DNA of 10,222 nucleotides from a virus (IMGVR_UViG_3300032007_004072:1-10222), one strand, 5' to 3'. Numbered from the stretch's first letter, positions 1,892 to 10,222 are shown. Notes: generated from the sequence alone by a model not told the origin. Program-made: numbers and translations.

Positions 1892-1898
1892 AAGGAGG
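1892..1898 (+). promoter_or_regulatory. Ribosome-binding site for the GTG 1907 gene
   Basis: AAGGAGG, 8 nt before GTG 1907. The ORF-track start at 1898 falls inside this SD. Confidence 0.85.
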
Positions 1899-1906
1899 TG
1901 TGGTTA

Positions 1907-2809
1907 GTGTTTATTTCAGGACAAGGAAATAATATTTTAGATTTATTCACTGCCATTCATGATACTCTTGTTGCTGTTGGTTGGACAGTTTACCCCATGA
2001 CTACCACATCTGGCGGTATAACAGATGGGGCAATATTCATGGGTACTGGTGATGGTACAGATAATATATACATATATTTGAGTTGTCATGAGGTTAGTGA
2101 TAGACTTATTTTGGATAGTAGCGTTGGCTATGACCAGCATTTAGGTGTATTTGAACAACCAGGAAGTTTACAACAATGGATGAAGCATGATGGTATTACA
2201 ATGACAGATACACCAGAGTTTGTTATATCTAATAATGAGCGTTATTTTTATTGGATTTTTGTAGATACTTATAGAATAATTGTAGTTGCACGTATGTCTA
2301 TTGTATATGAGTCTATGTATTTAGGATTTTTGAATCCGATAGCAGATGAAAGACAGTATCCTTATCCAATGTATGTATGCGGTAATACACATCAAAGAGG
2401 TCAAGCTTGGCCTAATAATACAAATGGTTCTTTTGTTTTCCCTCAGAATAATCAAGGGTGGCTTAGAAGAGCAGATGGTGTTTGGAGAGCATTTAATGCT
2501 AGTAAGCCAAACCCAAGTCCATCTACTGTAGGTACAGTATTTCCATATAATTCACACAACGAAAGATTAATTCCTAACTATAAAGAAACAGATGCTATAA
2601 ATCAAGATAACTTTTTGTTAATTCCAATAATAATGCAGACTAATGACCCAGTAGATATGAACGGTTTACTTAGAGGTTGTTATTGGGTATCTGGTACTCG
2701 TGATATTGACGCAGAAAGAGTTTTGGTATATGGCAATGAGCAGTATATAGTATTCGACACAAAACAAGATAGGGGGCCGAATACTTATTTCTGTATAAAG
2801 ATGGCGTGA
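1907..2809 (+). CDS. Putative virion structural/tail protein (300 aa), similar to D3112/MP22/YuA-type virion structural proteins
   Basis: Start corrected to GTG 1907 using the SD. Motifs LVAVGWT, GTGDGTDNIYI, YWIFVDTYRIIVVARMSIVYESMYLGFL...QYPYPMYVCG, LRRADGVW and GLLRGCYWV...YIVFDT...YFCIK match that family as I recall it. Confidence 0.75.
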   Translation: MFISGQGNNILDLFTAIHDTLVAVGWTVYPMTTTSGGITDGAIFMGTGDGTDNIYIYLSCHEVSDRLILDSSVGYDQHLGVFEQPGSLQQWMKHDGITMTDTPEFVISNNERYFYWIFVDTYRIIVVARMSIVYESMYLGFLNPIADERQYPYPMYVCGNTHQRGQAWPNNTNGSFVFPQNNQGWLRRADGVWRAFNASKPNPSPSTVGTVFPYNSHNERLIPNYKETDAINQDNFLLIPIIMQTNDPVDMNGLLRGCYWVSGTRDIDAERVLVYGNEQYIVFDTKQDRGPNTYFCIKMA

Positions 2810-2815
2810 TGAACC

Positions 2816-4603
2816 ATGTTTAGTTATAGATATGATATTAAAAGTTTTAATGATGTAGTCCCATCTTTTTTAGATTTTTGTGCTTTTTTTGATTATAATC
2901 AGGATAATATTATTGTTAATTATGGTTATGATAATTGGCATGGAGCTACAGTAGCTATACCAATTTCTGATTATAAAGTTGAAGCTGAATTTACAGATAG
3001 TATTTATTTACTTGGAGATCCAACTTTCTATTCTTTATTTTTTATTTGTTATAAAAATTATTCTAGATATGCTAATAAATGGTATTTAGGTAATACATTA
3101 AAAAGGATATATCCAAATAGCAATATATTGGTAGAAAATCAATTAAGTACTTCTGAATACTTAACAATGTTAAGTGGATTATCTGATAGTAAGGTTGTTT
3201 ATGTTTTTGGTAATAATATAACAAATCGTTATGGTAGTATTTCTGGGTTGTTTGATTATTTAGATACTATGAACGATGTATGTTTGAGTAATAACTTAGA
3301 CTTATATTTAGTATATGCACCTACAGAAGAACATAGTGATGAATTATATGACGCTATTGAAAGTTATGCTTATCAAGCTAAACCAAGAAAAATATTAAAT
3401 TTTTATAGTGAGTTAGCTGATACTAGACTAGATATGCAAGTTGCTCTTGATTATAATACCTATCAATTAACAGATTATAGGTCAATATATGGAGTTCAAA
3501 CTTATGTAGGCATACCAACATACTCAAGAAATATTGCAGCATTATTTACTAGATTTATATTATCTAATGTTTTTCATAAAGATAGAGAAGAATATTATGT
3601 TTCTTTAATGTATAGTAACAATCCAAAAACTTGGTATTCACAGTTATTTACTACTTATGATGAGTATATGATTGAGGAGTTTAATTATGACCAATATATT
3701 CATGGTGGTTGGAGTATACAAAGTAAATATGGTTCTAATCCACCAAATATATTTAAAAATACTGGAGAGTTAGTTTCTGTTGGTGTACATACTTCTTATG
3801 ATCCTTTTTTGTGGATGTGTGAGCAAGGTGGGATAACCTGTAAAAAAGAGGAAGATGAACAAATAGAAGATCTAGACTTAATGGGATTTTATGCATTTTT
3901 AAACGGAAGTCCAAATAAAAAAGTCAAGCCTCCTGTATTTCCTACTACTGGTTGTCCTTGGTTTACTATTTCAAGTAAAAATATTGCTGATTATGGTATT
4001 GCAAATTGTCCTGCTAAATTATATATTACTAGGGTAGGAAGTTCATTTATTTTAACTATAAGAGTTATTGACGCTAATGGACAAAAACCAGATTTATGGC
4101 AATCAATTACTTTTGGAGAATTTGTTGGTAGAATAGATGGCTATAATATAGATCAATTTTACTGTGCAGGAGGTAATCAAGCTTTATCTCCAGATTCATG
4201 GACATATTTTGCTACTTCTCATATAATTGGATTGCAGATGGATTTAGACATGAAAAATTCTTCTATTGTAAATTCTAATATATTACATCCTTCAAAGTTT
4301 GAGAAAACTAATTTATCTAATTTTAGAATTATGAATGGCGAAGGTACTTGGGAAGATATATATTCTGCCACACAGGGATACAAGGAATATCAATATTTGG
4401 ATGGTAATGGTAATGCCACAATTTATACTTGGGGAGTGCCATTAACTAAACCAAACTTTAATATTAGCAATAATCTAAATACTGCATATCCATATTTAGA
4501 TTGGCAACATAAGATAGACTCTTACACCATAAATAAGTATGATTTAAAGAAGAACGATATGTCTGGGAAGATAGATCCATTGACTGTATATTTAGCAAAG
4601 TAG
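2816..4603 (+). CDS. Putative virion structural/tail protein (595 aa), paralog of the 1907 gene, with an SGNH-like insert and an apparently missing C-terminal subdomain
   Basis: SD-like GTGAT overlaps the upstream TGA. TSYDPFLWMCEQGG parallels VGYDQHLGVFEQPG of the 1907 protein, and WQSITFGEF parallels YESMYLGFL. It ends at DPLTVYLAK, where the paralogs continue for another 45-100 aa. Confidence 0.7.
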   Translation: MFSYRYDIKSFNDVVPSFLDFCAFFDYNQDNIIVNYGYDNWHGATVAIPISDYKVEAEFTDSIYLLGDPTFYSLFFICYKNYSRYANKWYLGNTLKRIYPNSNILVENQLSTSEYLTMLSGLSDSKVVYVFGNNITNRYGSISGLFDYLDTMNDVCLSNNLDLYLVYAPTEEHSDELYDAIESYAYQAKPRKILNFYSELADTRLDMQVALDYNTYQLTDYRSIYGVQTYVGIPTYSRNIAALFTRFILSNVFHKDREEYYVSLMYSNNPKTWYSQLFTTYDEYMIEEFNYDQYIHGGWSIQSKYGSNPPNIFKNTGELVSVGVHTSYDPFLWMCEQGGITCKKEEDEQIEDLDLMGFYAFLNGSPNKKVKPPVFPTTGCPWFTISSKNIADYGIANCPAKLYITRVGSSFILTIRVIDANGQKPDLWQSITFGEFVGRIDGYNIDQFYCAGGNQALSPDSWTYFATSHIIGLQMDLDMKNSSIVNSNILHPSKFEKTNLSNFRIMNGEGTWEDIYSATQGYKEYQYLDGNGNATIYTWGVPLTKPNFNISNNLNTAYPYLDWQHKIDSYTINKYDLKKNDMSGKIDPLTVYLAK

Positions 4604-4614
4604 GTGATATAGCG

Positions 4615-6558
4615 ATGTCTGAATTTTTAAAGAAATTTATTAAGCCTGCTCAGGATTTAATTGATAATCCTCCTCCTATACCACCTAATAACAATGATTT
4701 TTTAGATCTATGTATAAGAAGTGTTTCTGATGGTCAATTTAATACTTACAGTGATGCTGTGTCCGAGTTTGTTTACTCTTTTAATTCTTATGCAGATAAA
4801 AATGAATTTTTATTAAAAGAGTGCGGAATTGTTCTCGATAATGAAGATAGCGGTAGCATTATTGGTAAGGATGCTAGAGGTGACTATGTAATAGGTAAGC
4901 ATTTTTGTCCAATTAAAGAAGTTCCAGAAGATTTACCTCCTAAACATGCTAATATTAATGGGATACTTATAGATTTTCGTGATTTATCTAACATAGAATC
5001 AGATAGTGACAAAACATCTTTATTTTTTAGGCATGCATATTATAATTGGATACCGTTTATTATAGATAAGATATATGAATCTTTTGGTTTAACTGTTAAT
5101 GATAAAATAGAGGTTAATTCAATACCACCAGTTGATTTTGTTTCAGCCCATACTAATATTGATTACTCAGTGCCTTTTTACGATTGTTTATTTTATCCTC
5201 GTGGTGATGCTACTGATGATGATGACGATGTTATTGATGAATCGTTCAATTATTGGGCAATAATTACTGGCACTGAATTTATAAATAATATGGATATTGT
5301 TGATGTTGGTAGAGTAGTGTTAGTTTCTGGTGGTGAGGAGAGAACTTATTATTTGGATACTGAACTTGCTCGTGTGTTTGTGGATGTTGTATTTGAGAGA
5401 TTAATTCCTTGGGCAGAGCTATTACCTGCATTATTTATGGATGGGTTGGCAGATGTTTTTGCTGGTGGTGATTTTAGACCTATAAATCATGGAACTGACT
5501 ATATTGAATTATTAACTAATAATATTGGTGTGTTATATGATGTGCTTGTTGAAAGAGGGCCACTAACTGATGATGGGGCATATATTGTTGCAGATACTTT
5601 TTTAAGGTGGTTAAAGGAAAGATTTCAGCCTAAAGTTTATACGCCTTTTCTCAATAAACTTATATATGGTGTAAATTTATATGATAAATTTTATGCTGAT
5701 GTAACAATGATAATAAATTTAGCTATACAATATGCTACAAAATTAACGGGAATAAAAACTTCATATGTACAATTTATACAAGAATATGTTAATAAATTAG
5801 ATATTGATGACATAGATAGCTCATTATATATATTATCTAAATTAGACTTTACTAATGAAGATGGTGGAGCATATGGAGGAAAAGATAGTAAATTTGTTGA
5901 CTATGCTATAAAAAGGCAAGACAGATTTCGTATATTAAATATATTCAGTTATCTTAATCAGGCAGATACTCTTTATTATAGTTTTAGCTACTACGCTAAA
6001 TATGAAAATAATGAATATAAGGTTAGGGATTTAACTATAAAATTTACAGAAATAACATCAAGCACAATAAACGCATACTATAAAAAATCAATAATATCAA
6101 GGCTCATTAGAGGGATATTTAAACCTGTGTTACAATGTTTGGATTACTATTTAAATTTGAGATTTGATTCATTTAGTTTTTGTAAAGTTATTCATATAGA
6201 TTTTGATGATGACCCAACTCCTATACGTCCTTGTAGTTATCAAGTTGGTTTTGATGAGAGTGGAAAGGTAAACAGCATGTTAATTACATTTTATACTCAT
6301 GCTTATATTCCTATAGATGATAGAGATACAATGCCTGCAATGGGTTATTATACAGGTAATTATCTTTTATATATATTTTGTATATTTATTATTTTATCTA
6401 AATTAAATAATGCTCAAGCATTTTATAGGCATCCTATAATAGTAGCAATAGCTATAACATTGGTTGGTTATGATGAGTTGGGCGAAACAGATATTAAAGA
6501 TACAGCTGTTAATGGAGATACAGAGCAATATGCGGTAGGTGGTATTATTGGGGACTGA
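4615..6558 (+). CDS. 647-aa protein with two tandem degenerate gluzincin/flagellinolysin-like folds (no HExxH)
   Basis: SD AGGTGAT at 4602-4608. FLDLCIRSVS..FNTYSDAVSEFV..FLLKECGIVLDNEDSGSIIGKDA, YLDTELARVFVD, DGLAD and AYIVADTFLRWL follow the order of motifs I recall from Selenomonas-type flagellin/surface metallopeptidase domains (CGIILDNxDTGAITGxDAGG, YLDRTxAHExTH, EGxAE, AYAxGYxFLRYL). Confidence 0.65.
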   Translation: MSEFLKKFIKPAQDLIDNPPPIPPNNNDFLDLCIRSVSDGQFNTYSDAVSEFVYSFNSYADKNEFLLKECGIVLDNEDSGSIIGKDARGDYVIGKHFCPIKEVPEDLPPKHANINGILIDFRDLSNIESDSDKTSLFFRHAYYNWIPFIIDKIYESFGLTVNDKIEVNSIPPVDFVSAHTNIDYSVPFYDCLFYPRGDATDDDDDVIDESFNYWAIITGTEFINNMDIVDVGRVVLVSGGEERTYYLDTELARVFVDVVFERLIPWAELLPALFMDGLADVFAGGDFRPINHGTDYIELLTNNIGVLYDVLVERGPLTDDGAYIVADTFLRWLKERFQPKVYTPFLNKLIYGVNLYDKFYADVTMIINLAIQYATKLTGIKTSYVQFIQEYVNKLDIDDIDSSLYILSKLDFTNEDGGAYGGKDSKFVDYAIKRQDRFRILNIFSYLNQADTLYYSFSYYAKYENNEYKVRDLTIKFTEITSSTINAYYKKSIISRLIRGIFKPVLQCLDYYLNLRFDSFSFCKVIHIDFDDDPTPIRPCSYQVGFDESGKVNSMLITFYTHAYIPIDDRDTMPAMGYYTGNYLLYIFCIFIILSKLNNAQAFYRHPIIVAIAITLVGYDELGETDIKDTAVNGDTEQYAVGGIIGD

Positions 6559-6610
6559 GGCACAAGCATTATCAGCTGGCTATCCCTTAATGAGATACGG
6601 CCTTGCTGAA
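4615..6610 (+). repeat. Internal protein-level tandem duplication, period about 338 aa (copy 1 about 4615-5625, copy 2 about 5700-6610)
   Basis: NEDSGSIIGKDAR (4840) and NEDGGAYGGKDSK (5854) are 1014 nt apart. FLDLCIRSVS matches IINLAIQYAT. The YL...zinc-helix positions (5371 and 6382) are 1011 nt apart. Confidence 0.65.
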
Positions 6611-7849
6611 TATAATGCTGTTATAGATTATCAACCAAAAACAGAAAATGCAAAAAGTGTTCCAGAAACATATAGATTTATAGCTTCTAATATAAAGGGT
6701 TGCTATGTTTCTTGGTCAAGGTCTTTACCTTCTGGAGAAGTAAGAATAGGTAGTGATATTTATTTATCTATTCCTAACGGTTGGGATGAAAGACTTTGTT
6801 ATTATCCTTGGTATACAGGACATAGATATTGGCAATATAATCAGTGGGATTATCCAGAACAAAATTATGAAAATTCAAGTACTACTCCAAAAGGAGCAAG
6901 AAACAATGAAAGTGTATACAGATATTATCATGGAAATGAAACAAATTTAGATGTTTATGTAAATAGAAATAGATTTACAGATAAGTTACTTATTTGGTAT
7001 AAGCAAGTTGAGAGAAAAGTGGCTTTAATTGATGATTTGTCACCTACGTTAGAAAACCCTACTAAGCCAACAAAAAATACAACTATTATTAGAATGAAGG
7101 TATTTGTACAAAATTCTAATGAGACTGTAAATTTTTATATTAAGCCTCTTAGTAACTGCATAACATATGTATATGATTTTGGCGATGGTAGTAAGAATGT
7201 ATATACTCAAGAAGATTATAGTACAGTTATAAGTCATAAGTATTCTTCACCTGGTTATTATGTTGTAGATGTAGACATTGTTTCAGGTATTAACTCGGCT
7301 GTTCATGTTAGGTTGCTTGATAGGGTTATTGTTAATTCAGATTTTAATACGTCTAGTGTACTTAAGACATTGTACGTTAATTGTAGTGGTGAATTTGAAA
7401 CTACAGAAGTATCTTTTGAGTGTGGTGGTACATTAGAGTATGTATATATATCAGCTGTACAAGATCATTATTCTATAAATTTTTGGGATGGTACTCGTAT
7501 TGATGATTTATATATAGTACCTAAAGATACAGAAGAAGACCAATTTCAGGGAAACGTAGTATTATCCAGTGGCTATGGTAATTATTATAATATGGTTAGT
7601 AATTTACATTTAAGTAGTAAGGTCAAGCAGTTAGACGTTTCATATTTTAATTATTTTAATACTGGGACAGTTAATGTTTATTCTTATTCGCTTGACCCGT
7701 TGAGAGTAATTTGTTATCCAGTATATGATAGTGTTAATGATATATATGATTTTTCATTATTAGCTTTTGATATGTTGTTATTTATAAGAGCTTCAATTAT
7801 AACTGAGGTTCAAGAATTAAATTATAATTTACCTATTTCAGTGTTTTAA
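6548..7849 (+). CDS. Putative tail-associated protein (433 aa from TTG 6548, or the frameshifted continuation of the 4615 gene): tail-domain C-terminal fragment, PKD-like domain, degenerate LRR-like region
   Basis: The frame is open from 6539. AGGTGGT (6537-6543) could be an SD for TTG 6548. NIKGCYVSW...GEVRIGSDIYLSIP matches the C-terminal part of the virion family. YDFGDG...SHKYSSPGYYVV is a PKD signature. The start position is uncertain. Confidence 0.65.
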   Translation: MGTEAQALSAGYPLMRYGLAEYNAVIDYQPKTENAKSVPETYRFIASNIKGCYVSWSRSLPSGEVRIGSDIYLSIPNGWDERLCYYPWYTGHRYWQYNQWDYPEQNYENSSTTPKGARNNESVYRYYHGNETNLDVYVNRNRFTDKLLIWYKQVERKVALIDDLSPTLENPTKPTKNTTIIRMKVFVQNSNETVNFYIKPLSNCITYVYDFGDGSKNVYTQEDYSTVISHKYSSPGYYVVDVDIVSGINSAVHVRLLDRVIVNSDFNTSSVLKTLYVNCSGEFETTEVSFECGGTLEYVYISAVQDHYSINFWDGTRIDDLYIVPKDTEEDQFQGNVVLSSGYGNYYNMVSNLHLSSKVKQLDVSYFNYFNTGTVNVYSYSLDPLRVICYPVYDSVNDIYDFSLLAFDMLLFIRASIITEVQELNYNLPISVF

Positions 7850-7863
7850 GGTGGTGATAATAA

Positions 7864-9432
7864 TTGTTTTCACATTATAAAGTTACTAGTACTTCGGAAA
7901 TGAAAGAAAAAATAATAAATTTTGTTTGTATAGTGTGTGGACTTGAATTATCACCATCAAGTAATATACAAGTACTTACTAAAGATAATAATCATAAATT
8001 ATGGTTTATGCAGGAATCTTATGGTATATCTGTATGGATTACTGATTTTGATGACGTTAACGTAGATGGTTCTACAGTAGAAACATCTCCATATTATGCT
8101 ACCTCTACTGTAGGTCTTGCTGGAAGATATGTAACAGATGAGCAAGTAACAGTTATAGATGAAGAAGCAACAGCAGAAGCAAAGGCAGAAGCTATGGAAG
8201 AATTAGAGGAGTGGAAAAAGGAACAAGGTGGAGAAGATCCAGAATCAACTTTTAAGGAAGTAAGGAAGAAAGTAATATATGAACAAGAATTAGCGAAGAA
8301 GTTAAAAGAGATAGACGAAATAAAGAAAACAAAAAAAGAGTGGCATAGATTATATGATACTAATGTATTTCATATAGGTGGAGTACTTAGATTTTCTGAT
8401 GTAACTCAAGATGCTACTTTAGGAAGATATAAATATTTGGATTGTCACTATAATGATGGTGTATTTGCTTTTTTCTTATATTCACATGGAGATAGAAAGA
8501 ATACTAACACCTTAGTGATTGGAGAATATACACCTACGCATAAAAATAATACAGATAGAACATTTATTTTATCTAATACTTTTCGTATTGTTAGCGAAAA
8601 TAAAAATGCTGGCTATGATGATTCATTTGTTTTTGAAGGTGCAAATGGTATTGAAACTTTTCCCCTACATAGTGAGGATAGAATAATACATTATAATAAT
8701 GAATTGTTTAGATTAGTTCAGTATGATATAGATGCTGAGCCAGAACCAAAAAAATATTCTGTAAATGGGGTAAAAGTTGGATTTAGACAAAATATAGCTC
8801 CAGTATGGATACAAAAGTGGAATTTAGCGAAAGAAAAAAGTGATTCAGAATCTAAATATAATGGTAATATAAAGGTATTAGAATGGCAGTACAGAGAATT
8901 ACATTGCACATATGAATGTGAAGAGTCTACGGTGGGCGTAAATTATTTTCCTTTATTAGATACACAAAAAAGGTCTTATAGACAATATGACCCATATATT
9001 CCAGGGCCAGACCCTTACGATGATTTTACAGGATTTAGACGTAGCGGAACAGGAGGAAATTCTGTAAATACTAATAATAATATTAGTGAATGTATGCCTC
9101 TTATATTTTATGTATTAAGAGATCCAGATGATTTAGATAGTTGGTCTTGTGTTGGTATGACTGATATTGTTGGGTATATAAATATGTATAACATGTCAAG
9201 CGGAAGAGTTTTGCAATCAAGATTTAGAGATAATTATCAAAAACATGCTTGTTATGATTTATATAAAAGACGTTGTAAATATACTCCATGGAGTCCAGAT
9301 GAAAATGAGCCGAATCCTGGACATAAATATAATATGTCTTGGGGTTTTGGTGGATATCCAGGAATACATTTTAAATTAGATGATGAGACTACAGAAAATG
9401 CATTAGCAATAGGGAGGGGTAGAGTTGTATAA
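7864..9432 (+). CDS. Putative virion structural/tail protein (522 aa), third paralog, with a charged helical insertion
   Basis: TTG start with SD GGTGAT (7853-7858). The N-terminus MFSHYKVTSTSEMKEKIINFV parallels the other paralogs. The C-terminal PLIFYVLRD...WSCVGMTDIVGYINM...SSG...YPGIHFKL fits the family C-terminus. Confidence 0.65.
   Translation: MFSHYKVTSTSEMKEKIINFVCIVCGLELSPSSNIQVLTKDNNHKLWFMQESYGISVWITDFDDVNVDGSTVETSPYYATSTVGLAGRYVTDEQVTVIDEEATAEAKAEAMEELEEWKKEQGGEDPESTFKEVRKKVIYEQELAKKLKEIDEIKKTKKEWHRLYDTNVFHIGGVLRFSDVTQDATLGRYKYLDCHYNDGVFAFFLYSHGDRKNTNTLVIGEYTPTHKNNTDRTFILSNTFRIVSENKNAGYDDSFVFEGANGIETFPLHSEDRIIHYNNELFRLVQYDIDAEPEPKKYSVNGVKVGFRQNIAPVWIQKWNLAKEKSDSESKYNGNIKVLEWQYRELHCTYECEESTVGVNYFPLLDTQKRSYRQYDPYIPGPDPYDDFTGFRRSGTGGNSVNTNNNISECMPLIFYVLRDPDDLDSWSCVGMTDIVGYINMYNMSSGRVLQSRFRDNYQKHACYDLYKRRCKYTPWSPDENEPNPGHKYNMSWGFGGYPGIHFKLDDETTENALAIGRGRVV
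9413..9417 (+). promoter_or_regulatory. Ribosome-binding site for the TTG 9425 gene (inside the previous CDS)
   Basis: GGAGG, 7 nt upstream of TTG 9425. Confidence 0.75.
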
Positions 9433-10222
9433 TTTAAGATTTTCAGCATATGATAATTTTGATGCTATTGATTCTGCTTTCTATTATGCAACATGCTATG
9501 TGCCTAATGCATTTCCTTATTCTAGTGCGTGGGAGAGTGGGATTTCTATATTTGAAGACGGTGGTTTTGTATTAAATGTTGCAAGAAACACTGATGGTAG
9601 GTGTTGGAGAAGATTAGACAATAGATTAAATACTTTTTATGGTTCTACATATGAATGTCCGTTAAGTGACTATGAAGTTCATTCTGAAGCATATAGATTT
9701 GTTATTTGTGGTAACTTACATATAATGTCAGACTATTCTCGTATTTTTGTTGATTATGTAGTTAGTCCTAAAGATGAACCAGAATCATATGCTGATATGG
9801 GGTGGGGAGATGATATTGCAAATTCTTGGCATCACGAAGTTGATGGCATAAGATTTGATAGTTTAGAGAATATAGTTTCAGTATCTTATCCTAATGCGAC
9901 TATAACTAAATTTGGTGATTTTACTACACCTACATTTGATTACACACTTTCTTCATCAAATATATCTCAGGTATTTAATATACTTAGTAATATTGTTGGT
10001 GGTGTAGATTATGATAGTGTAGATGTGAATATATATAGATCACAGTTACCAACACATATACTTATAGGAGGCATAGAGAAGGAAATATCTGATTTAGATA
10101 ACTTTAATGACGCAATAAGTACTGTTATTGATATAATGAATATATGTAGAGTTTGGGGTATTAGGCTTGTAATTGTTACTGACCCAAGTTACAAAGAAAG
10201 CTCATTTTATTTAGATTATAGA
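9425..10222 (+). CDS. 3'-truncated protein (at least 266 aa; absent from the ORF track), probable tail-cluster protein with an SGNH-like fold
   Basis: I translated frame 2 from TTG 9425 to the window end with no stop: MYNLRFSAYDNFDAIDSAFYYATCYVP...YRFVICGNLHIMSDY...RSQLPTHILIGGIEKE...CRVWGIRLVIVTDPSY... It overlaps the previous stop by 8 nt and has a good SD. Confidence 0.8.
   Translation, partial: MYNLRFSAYDNFDAIDSAFYYATCYVPNAFPYSSAWESGISIFEDGGFVLNVARNTDGRCWRRLDNRLNTFYGSTYECPLSDYEVHSEAYRFVICGNLHIMSDYSRIFVDYVVSPKDEPESYADMGWGDDIANSWHHEVDGIRFDSLENIVSVSYPNATITKFGDFTTPTFDYTLSSSNISQVFNILSNIVGGVDYDSVDVNIYRSQLPTHILIGGIEKEISDLDNFNDAISTVIDIMNICRVWGIRLVIVTDPSYKESSFYLDYR

Follow-up and report, generated by a model that had tools for sequence, protein, structure and literature searches.

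Probable fission of a side-fiber gene within a folded domain, the halves flanking a peptidase-like gene

The large subunit of the phage T4 topoisomerase is split into genes 39 and 60, the products of which associate, and split DNA polymerase and other split genes are known in archaea and phages. Here we describe a related arrangement in the first 10,222 nt (the window) of a 147,994-nt virus record with a G+C content of 30% (IMGVR_UViG_3300032007_004072:1-10222), in which the genes of interest are all on the plus strand. A gene at 2816-4603 and an open reading frame (ORF) at 6539-7849 code for the two parts of what is a single chain in relatives, and a peptidase-like gene (4615-6558) lies between them. 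We favor gene fission inside a folded domain of a side-fiber protein, with each product translated separately and the two reassembling noncovalently, and give this explanation a probability of about 0.8. As in T4 39/60-type fissions, one ancestral protein is distributed over two genes and contiguous versions are present in relatives, with association here being predicted. In contrast to those fissions, the cut lies inside a beta-rich putative virion domain and is accompanied by an inserted enzyme-like module, with natural variants in which the module is fused, free, duplicated, inactivated, or deleted. Phage tail modules often undergo fission and fusion, but few documented cuts fall within a compact beta-rich virion domain, and fewer still leave both pieces conserved and next to each other throughout a clade.

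The closest solved structures are those of Pseudomonas phage JBD30, a D3112-like Casadabanvirus (PDB 8RK3 and 8RK5), in which the tail-fiber-forming gp47 and gp48 are present as heterodimers that build three lateral arms gripping the type IV pilus (Valentova et al., EMBO J 2024; PMC11445458). The window locus has the same core fold, a neighboring gene (1898-2809) that is a sequence homolog, a location within a tail/baseplate block, and paralogs side by side, like gp47 and gp48. The JBD30 proteins are single chains of ~305 to 318 aa, whereas here the domain is part of a ~1000-aa architecture (N-terminal region, PKD domain, and C-terminal domain) that is split into two genes on either side of a peptidase-like gene. 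From the fold and the gene context we infer a baseplate side-fiber role and a virion location; the corresponding gene block in relatives is downstream of a 2000- to 2850-aa lysozyme-domain protein and among paralogs. Gene fission is a known kind of event, here in a family whose fold was solved only in 2024 and with an unusually complete set of natural intermediates.

The genes and their main parts are as follows.
2816-4603, plus strand: first-fragment gene, 595 aa; N-terminal region followed by a JBD30 gp47/gp48-like core domain (residues ~253-595).
4615-6558, plus strand: intervening gene, 647 aa; two tandem putative MA-clan (gluzincin-like) peptidase modules (residues ~1-340 and 344-647).
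6539-7849, plus strand, frame 2: second-fragment ORF, 436 aa, or 433 aa from TTG 6548; carries a PKD domain.
6656-7000, plus strand: post-cut part of the core domain, collinear with contiguous homologs; its strands are predicted to complete the domain in trans.
7001-7849, plus strand: distal part of the second fragment, with the PKD domain (~7115-7279) and a C-terminal domain.
9425-11878 of the record (9425-10222 in the window), plus strand: 817-aa unsplit paralog, the in-genome reference for the intact fold.
1898-2809, plus strand: 300- to 303-aa homolog of the JBD30 "virion structural protein" (gp47/gp48 family), sharing the fold family of the split domain.
7864-9432, plus strand: 522-aa protein.

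The missing part of the domain and its contiguous relatives

The 2816-4603 ORF ends in ...DPLTVYLAK followed by TAG at 4601-4603, and the last strands of the fold are absent from its product. The 6539-7849 ORF is in the same frame and reads ...ENAK-SVPETYRFIASNIKGCYVSW from 6656. A sequence-only reading of the window had reported the stop at 4601, the continuation SVPETYRF from 6656, and the ~992-aa ORF obtained by removal of the 685 intervening codons, and all of these, with their coordinates, were verified (in silico deletion of 4601-6655, 2055 nt, gives a 992-aa ORF). The best paralog of the 2816 protein is the 817-aa 9425 protein (E value, 1.5e-28 with the first half alone). The in silico fusion of the halves aligns to this paralog without gaps across the joint and continuously to paralog residue 783 (E value, 2e-34), and the 6539 protein alone matches paralog residues 726-783.

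A homolog search covering 5.8 billion proteins yields two kinds of relatives, here designated by P numbers for proteins and L numbers for loci. The short homologs stop at the same place as the 2816 protein (P0002, 595 aa and 85% identical; P0003, 605 aa and 75% identical; P0004, P0005, and P0006-10). The long homologs, sought as uninterrupted relatives of the split gene, were found as P0011 and five or more full-length clusters; they are 996 to 1050 aa long with a PKD domain (P0011, 997 aa; P0012, 996 aa), and further contiguous orthologs (P0014-16 and P0022-26) likewise have no stop, Shine-Dalgarno (SD) sequence, or inserted gene at the loop. The P0011 sequence ...LDPVVAYLY-SDENDIRLAYGCIKNCYSAWSKTLPAG... 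aligns column for column with the window sequence ...IDPLTVYLAK-SVPETYRFIASNIKGCYVSWSRSLPSG..., so that in P0011-type orthologs, as in the 9425 paralog, the domain order and sequence are collinear with the window across the cut. The first half is 49% and the second half 40% identical to P0011, and the 6548 protein matches P0011 residues 594-930 (E value, 2e-26).

Of 1.84 billion representatives searched exhaustively with the profile, 362 matched, and more than 50 clusters are contiguous through the cut site to core position ~395-410. The split first halves (P0002-P0010) end at positions 338-341 of the core hidden Markov model, where seven second-half clusters begin. The question of whether homologs routinely end at the position of PLTVYLAK can thus be answered: more than 50 clusters continue, and the split is confined to one clade. 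The window layout is not an assembly artifact, since it is 100% identical in DNA in two independent assemblies. The placement of the missing part downstream is confirmed and is far beyond chance.

The 1898 protein (1907 in the sequence-only reading) and the 7864 protein had been named as paralogs that continue past the stop. This is borne out for the 1898 protein, a remote relative with an alignment to the core profile that spans the split site (hhalign probability, 79%; E value, 1.7e-5), but the 7864 protein is not detectably related, even with a profile of five syntenic orthologs, and the best paralog is the 9425 protein. BLASTP among the window proteins supports neither 1898 nor 7864 as a paralog. 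Several general searches returned nothing: the window had no megablast match among GenBank phages and no relatives in a single-sequence scan of viral contigs, and Pfam and PHROGs searches with the 2816 and 4615 proteins were empty; for the 6539 protein, Pfam gives only the PKD domain (1.7e-7) and PHROGs gives no match. The PKD-bearing distal architecture recurs in the contiguous P0016 and P0011, and the product of 7001-7849 is probably an outward-facing adhesion part. One consequence for annotation is that the ~400- to 440-aa PKD proteins and the ~590-aa proteins of these phages should be considered halves of one side-fiber subunit.

Fold of the divided domain and association of the halves

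We modeled the core domain with AlphaFold2 using residues 250-700 of P0011, a contiguous homolog rather than the window fragments, and a 76-row alignment (predicted local distance difference test [pLDDT], 85.4; predicted template modeling score, 0.87). The cut falls in a loop of this model (residues 337-347) between strands 331-336 and 348-358, and this loop varies in length across the family. Beyond the cut, strands 348-358, 365-369, and 372-377 (for the most part at a pLDDT above 90) are followed by a helix at 419-428 and the last strand at 439-447, and the domain of the wider family ends 55 to 110 residues after the cut. The window segments corresponding to these strands are as follows.
6671-6718, plus strand: post-cut strand YRFIASNIKGCYVSWS; strand 348-358 of the P0011 model.
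6764-6811, plus strand: post-cut strands LSIPNGWDERLCYYPW; residues 365-377 of the P0011 model.
6974-7000, plus strand: last strand, FTDKLLIWY; residues 439-447 of the P0011 model.

A Foldseek search of the PDB with the P0011 model finds only JBD30 baseplate chains, 8rk3_K (E value, 2e-6) and 8rk3_G (E value, 2.5e-5). VIA-align superimposes model residues 3-446 on residues 63-318 of 8rk3_K (Z score, 18.6; root mean square deviation, 3.3 A over 239 residues); the second-best entry reaches a Z score of 2.7. The core profile of the split family has no direct sequence match in the PDB; the 1898 protein matches PDB 8rk3_c (E value, 1.3e-7) and phrog_687 (1.2e-29). The BFVD database adds "virion structural proteins" of KL1-, FoX4-, and AchV4-type siphophages. 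As the 8rk3_K chain aligns on both sides of the cut, one solved domain spans it, and the model places the break inside one structural domain and not at a domain boundary. The P0011 model and the JBD30 alignment thus bear out the proposal that one fold is divided between two genes with the cut in a loop. The resemblance to a D3112-type C terminus, which the sequence-only reading had proposed, was a good lead, because JBD30, recovered by Foldseek and VIA-align, is D3112-like. We also note that the family member P0033 (1256 aa) has a bona fide GDSL/SGNH lipase domain (residues 523-707; Pfam, 2.2e-10) just upstream of its core domain.

The ratio of nonsynonymous to synonymous substitution (dN/dS) relative to L011 is 0.13 in the first half and 0.10 in the second-fragment leader (6551-6655; leader dS, 0.63), and the second half has a ratio of 0.16, which points to purifying selection on both halves. 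The post-cut strands are equally conserved in split and contiguous forms, with near-invariant G63, L73, P76, W79, R82, and Y86. Prediction of a complex between residues 250-595 of the 2816 protein and residues 1-160 of the 6548 protein gave an interaction prediction score from aligned errors (ipSAE) of 0.82 compared with 0.58 for the best of three controls, a pass that speaks for resemblance to the intact fold and falls short of separate proof that the halves bind, since contiguous homologs cut at the site are present in the alignments and the JBD30 fold is solved. The mark that this score passes is reached by 58 of 80 solved complexes and by 2 of 110 mismatched pairs. The runs share at least 52% of contacts, with a partner pLDDT of 48 to 56. 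The contact residues of the 6548 protein (42-57, 73-88, and 143-151) are the strands absent from the first fragment, and those of the 2816 protein are 403-416, 425-438, 479-491, and 584-595. Of the routes to a rebuilt fold that had been put forward, association of separate polypeptides is, on this prediction, the best supported.

Layouts in relatives and the intervening peptidase-like gene

The relatives form a natural series of layouts, given below as the sizes of successive products.
L007: 605 aa, TAG, GGTGAT, 9 nt, and a 415-aa PKD protein; no insert.
L003: 596 and 421 aa, halves adjacent; no insert.
L011: 595, 652, and 433 aa; layout as in the window.
L012: 603, 642, and 428 aa; layout as in the window.
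L013: 588, 288, and 440 aa; a single free module.
L005: 814 and 758 aa; peptidase-like domain fused to the second half, HExxH intact.
L014, 937-3168: P0013, contiguous, 743 aa.

The L007 first half is 75% identical to that of the window over residues 250-595 and 62% identical over the whole protein. With the halves only 9 nt apart in both L007 and L003, the split is independent of the insert. The suggestion that a module was inserted in a loop and that fission followed therefore holds in part: a foreign module is located at the cut, but the split also exists without it. The real indel relative to L007 is 1984 nt (~4641-6624), lies between TTAT microhomologies, and is within the leader of the downstream gene. 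Deletion of these 1984 nt places ATG 4615 in frame with the second half (MSEFLKKFI-DYQPKT...), matching MQSEVIKKFIDYKPST... in L007, which has kept only the first and last few codons of the module. The exact in-frame removal of 2055 nt does not carry the meaning given to it earlier, nor does the Ala-Lys repeat on its two sides (GCAAAG at 4595 and GCAAAA at 6650), as L007 has no Ala-Lys at the second site. L011 and L003 share the window's frame relation between the halves, but L012 and L007 do not, and since this relation is not conserved, the exact in-frame removal is a one-in-three coincidence. A target-site duplication was considered for the 5-nt GCAAA repeat and rejected; the repeat codes for Ala-Lys, L011 has it in imperfect form and L007 lacks it, and its position does not coincide with the real indel.

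Two boundaries and a leader define the translation units.
4601-4617, plus strand: fission junction, with the TAG stop, an overlapping SD-like AGGTGAT (4602-4608), and ATG 4615.
6537-6550, plus strand: second-fragment start, with SD-like AGGTGG (6537-6542) and TTG 6548 5 nt after it; overlaps the end of 4615-6558 in the +1 frame.
6548-6655, plus strand: second-fragment leader, 36 residues, LGTEAQALSAGYPLMRYGLAEYNAVIDYQPKTENAK.

The window shares the fission junction TAGGTGAT with L011, L007, and L003, and it persists at protein identities as low as ~52%. The second fragment most likely starts at TTG 6548, judging from the arrangement in relatives; in L011 and L012 a TAG just upstream makes the TTG the first possible start, and the L013 equivalent begins at the corresponding protein position, with an ATG that is part of a TAATG overlap, but has a different frame offset (-1). 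TTG starts are frequent in this side-fiber block (7864, 9425, 6548, and orthologs in L003 and L005). A homologous leader is present in P0107, and the leader sequence AQALSAGYPLMRYGLAEY aligns both with the module-ending stretch of L005 (GYALYYAFWRYFAKQ) and with AYIVADTFLRWL after the first module. The leader may thus be the last helix of the peptidase-like module, in which case the gene boundary at 6530-6660 would itself cut a domain. In L012 (1960-1975) the first fragment ends three codons early through a TAT-to-TAA change (...PLTV*), and the LAK-TAG codons are still readable behind it.

The 4615 gene is a tandem duplication of one module, as the 288-aa L013 gene matches both residues 344-647 of the 4615 protein (E value, 5e-48) and the L005 module (E value, 9e-13). 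The 758-aa L005 protein has an N-terminal domain that matches residues 30-290 of the 4615 protein (E value, 2e-9); within the 4615 protein itself, the internal repeat signal is weak by hhalign (E value, 7e-4). The module is fused to the N terminus of the second half in L005, P0070, and P0097. For the 4615 gene as a whole, dN/dS is 0.36, relaxed in the first module (0.54) and tighter in the second (0.20).

An HExxH motif with a downstream EGxAE glutamate is intact in P0021, L005, P0070, and P0097 and is replaced in the window and in P0020; where the relatives have HE(F/I)(V/T)H and EG(L/T)AE, the window has ...LARVFVDVV... and ...MDGLADV..., and the motif is lost in both modules of the window copy. 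With relatives carrying HExxH and the glutamate, the window gene is plausibly a catalytically dead derivative. P0021 (L012, 2002-3930) is 52% identical and keeps the motif in its first module, and active and dead versions would thus be present in close relatives. Membership in the MA/gluzincin clan is suggested by several leads that fall short of demonstration. The HExxH and downstream glutamate of the relatives are in the expected helices, a likeness to MA-clan peptidases (Peptidase_MA_2, M9-like), and language-model features in the Atlas give "Peptidase MA-like" at 0.91. In contrast with those peptidases, no match of the intervening gene passes a curated threshold and the window copy is without the motif; the Pfam Peptidase_MA_2 match to P0097 is below threshold (20.6 bits versus a cutoff of 32.4), the peptidase alignment found no meaningful sequence match in the PDB, and the AlphaFold2 model of the 4615 protein is poor (pLDDT, 44.6).

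Alternative readings and a possible history

An alternative is that a single ~992-aa protein is restored through RNA splicing, DNA excision, an intein, readthrough, or a -1 shift near 4543-4600 combined with a +1 shift near 6550. This would make use of the exact in-frame 2055-nt removal and of the GCAAA repeat on both sides, but we consider it the least probable reading, and very improbable. The 4601-6655 interval contains 55 stops of the 2816 frame and is a conserved gene under selection with homologs that are fused or free elsewhere. The half-to-half frames differ in L012 and L007, and the genes of split relatives can be as little as 9 nt apart. Within 4300-7000, no Rfam family matches at an E value of ≤1, arguing against an intron, and no Pfam family matches the 4615 protein at an E value of ≤0.1, and so no Hint or endonuclease domain, arguing against an intein. 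These features give no sign of an intron, an intein, or programmed recoding that would restore one ORF. The idea that the fold is rebuilt from a recoded polyprotein fails on the same stops, on the unconserved frame relation, and on the conserved stop, SD, and start boundaries. TAG is the stop of 13 ORFs, and aragorn finds no tRNA gene in the 148-kb record and hence no encoded suppressor. The -1 shift was examined separately and rejected: all four substitutions in 4570-4600 relative to L011 are synonymous in the 2816 frame and nonsynonymous in the -1 frame, and the A_AAG site is not conserved (GCGAAG in L011).

A programmed +1 slip is improbable but somewhat less so; it would occur on GGG-G (6550-6553), just before TGA 6556, and would tether the 4615 product to the 6548 frame, together with or instead of the TTG start. 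In its favor, one base fewer gives a ~1077-aa ORF; L011 and L012 share the sequence GTAGGTGGTAT..TTGGGGACTGA and the +1 offset with the window; L005, P0070, and P0097 each have the module joined to the second half in one chain; and the leader, as noted, may be the last helix of the module. The conservation carries little weight, however, as the three junctions are near-identical in DNA, and the ~50% diverged L013 has a canonical TAATG stop/start overlap with ATG and an offset of -1. AGGTGG lies 5 nt before TTG 6548 in a gene block where TTG starts are common. The distance from the SD to the slip site is 7 nt, which does not match a prfB-type +1 stimulator. We regard as equally doubtful an extension of this idea, that the loop is a natural "docking port" in which a peptidase module with a start codon of its own landed and where the break is kept because the phage can then display, swap, duplicate, or drop an enzyme at the fiber while leaving the fiber itself as it is, with some ribosomes slipping +1 at GGG-G to give two isoforms of the second fragment, a free one and one that carries the dead peptidase; were it true, fiber composition would be set by a recoding event. 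It is also unlikely, though marginally less so than a slip, that the fragments no longer reassemble, such that the truncated 2816 domain functions by itself and the 6548 strands are vestigial or bind another partner. The premature TAA in L012 indicates that the extreme C terminus of the first fragment tolerates change, and the contiguous P0013, without a PKD and C-terminal part, shows that regions can have separate fates; against this, the post-cut strands are conserved as in the contiguous forms with low dN/dS, they contact interior strands (WQSITFG and NSNILH) in the intact fold and are predicted to do likewise in trans, and the split halves are always neighbors.

Gene fission with noncovalent reassembly, the explanation that we favor, supposes an ancestor with one ~1000-residue chain in which an N-terminal region preceded the core, PKD, and C-terminal domains. 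In a single clade, made up of large rumen phages, the break would have fallen in a variable loop at the surface, with ~110 residues of the core domain left beyond it. Most of the domain would then come from the first product (2816-4603); the second (TTG 6548-7849) would contribute the leader, the last three strands, the helix, and the final strand and, after these, the PKD and C-terminal domains. Both products would be translated with a stop, SD sequence, and start of their own and would fold together noncovalently in the virion (fold complementation). The most economical origin is that a peptidase module, bringing its own translation start, lands once in the loop and breaks the gene, with lineage-specific duplication, separation, inactivation, or deletion of the module thereafter. 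A single ancestral event is favored by the module being at the same loop in both subclades and by the end codons kept in L007. When a tree is built from the pre-cut region with 9425-type paralogs as the root, the 11 split forms all group within one 12-row clade (Shimodaira-Hasegawa-like approximate likelihood ratio test, 87), which is nested among contiguous forms and outgroups.

Several points weigh against this explanation. The meeting of the two products is a prediction, in which the fold confidence of the partner is low (pLDDT of 48 to 56, as above) and one control reaches 0.58. The contiguous P0013 is inside the split clade, and the tree thus needs two changes, either re-fusion or two fissions with recombinational spread of the module. 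The P0013 linker (WSTSGG...QLLASGTVPHAYSTW) resembles the post-module stretch of L005, consistent with re-fusion through loss of the module. At GGGG (6550-6553) the three closest relatives keep the +1 overlap, and some frameshifted 4615-6548 fusion product may be made, although none is needed. The series of contiguous, split and empty, one-module, two-module, fused, and P0013 forms makes questions of fold complementation, of how far baseplate assembly tolerates chain breaks, and of the grafting of enzymes onto fibers directly testable.

P0013 itself ends right after the core domain, without the PKD and C-terminal domains, and its linker at the split site is 24 residues longer. At the start of the window, an Asn/Gln-rich 235-aa protein (103-810) matches phrog_16490 and is followed by a 146-aa protein (885-1325) with a weak match to a BclA C-terminal (C1q/TNF-like) domain (E value, 1e-4, below the cutoff) and a weak PHROG match to "collagen-like minor tail"; this pair may form a small fiber or decoration.

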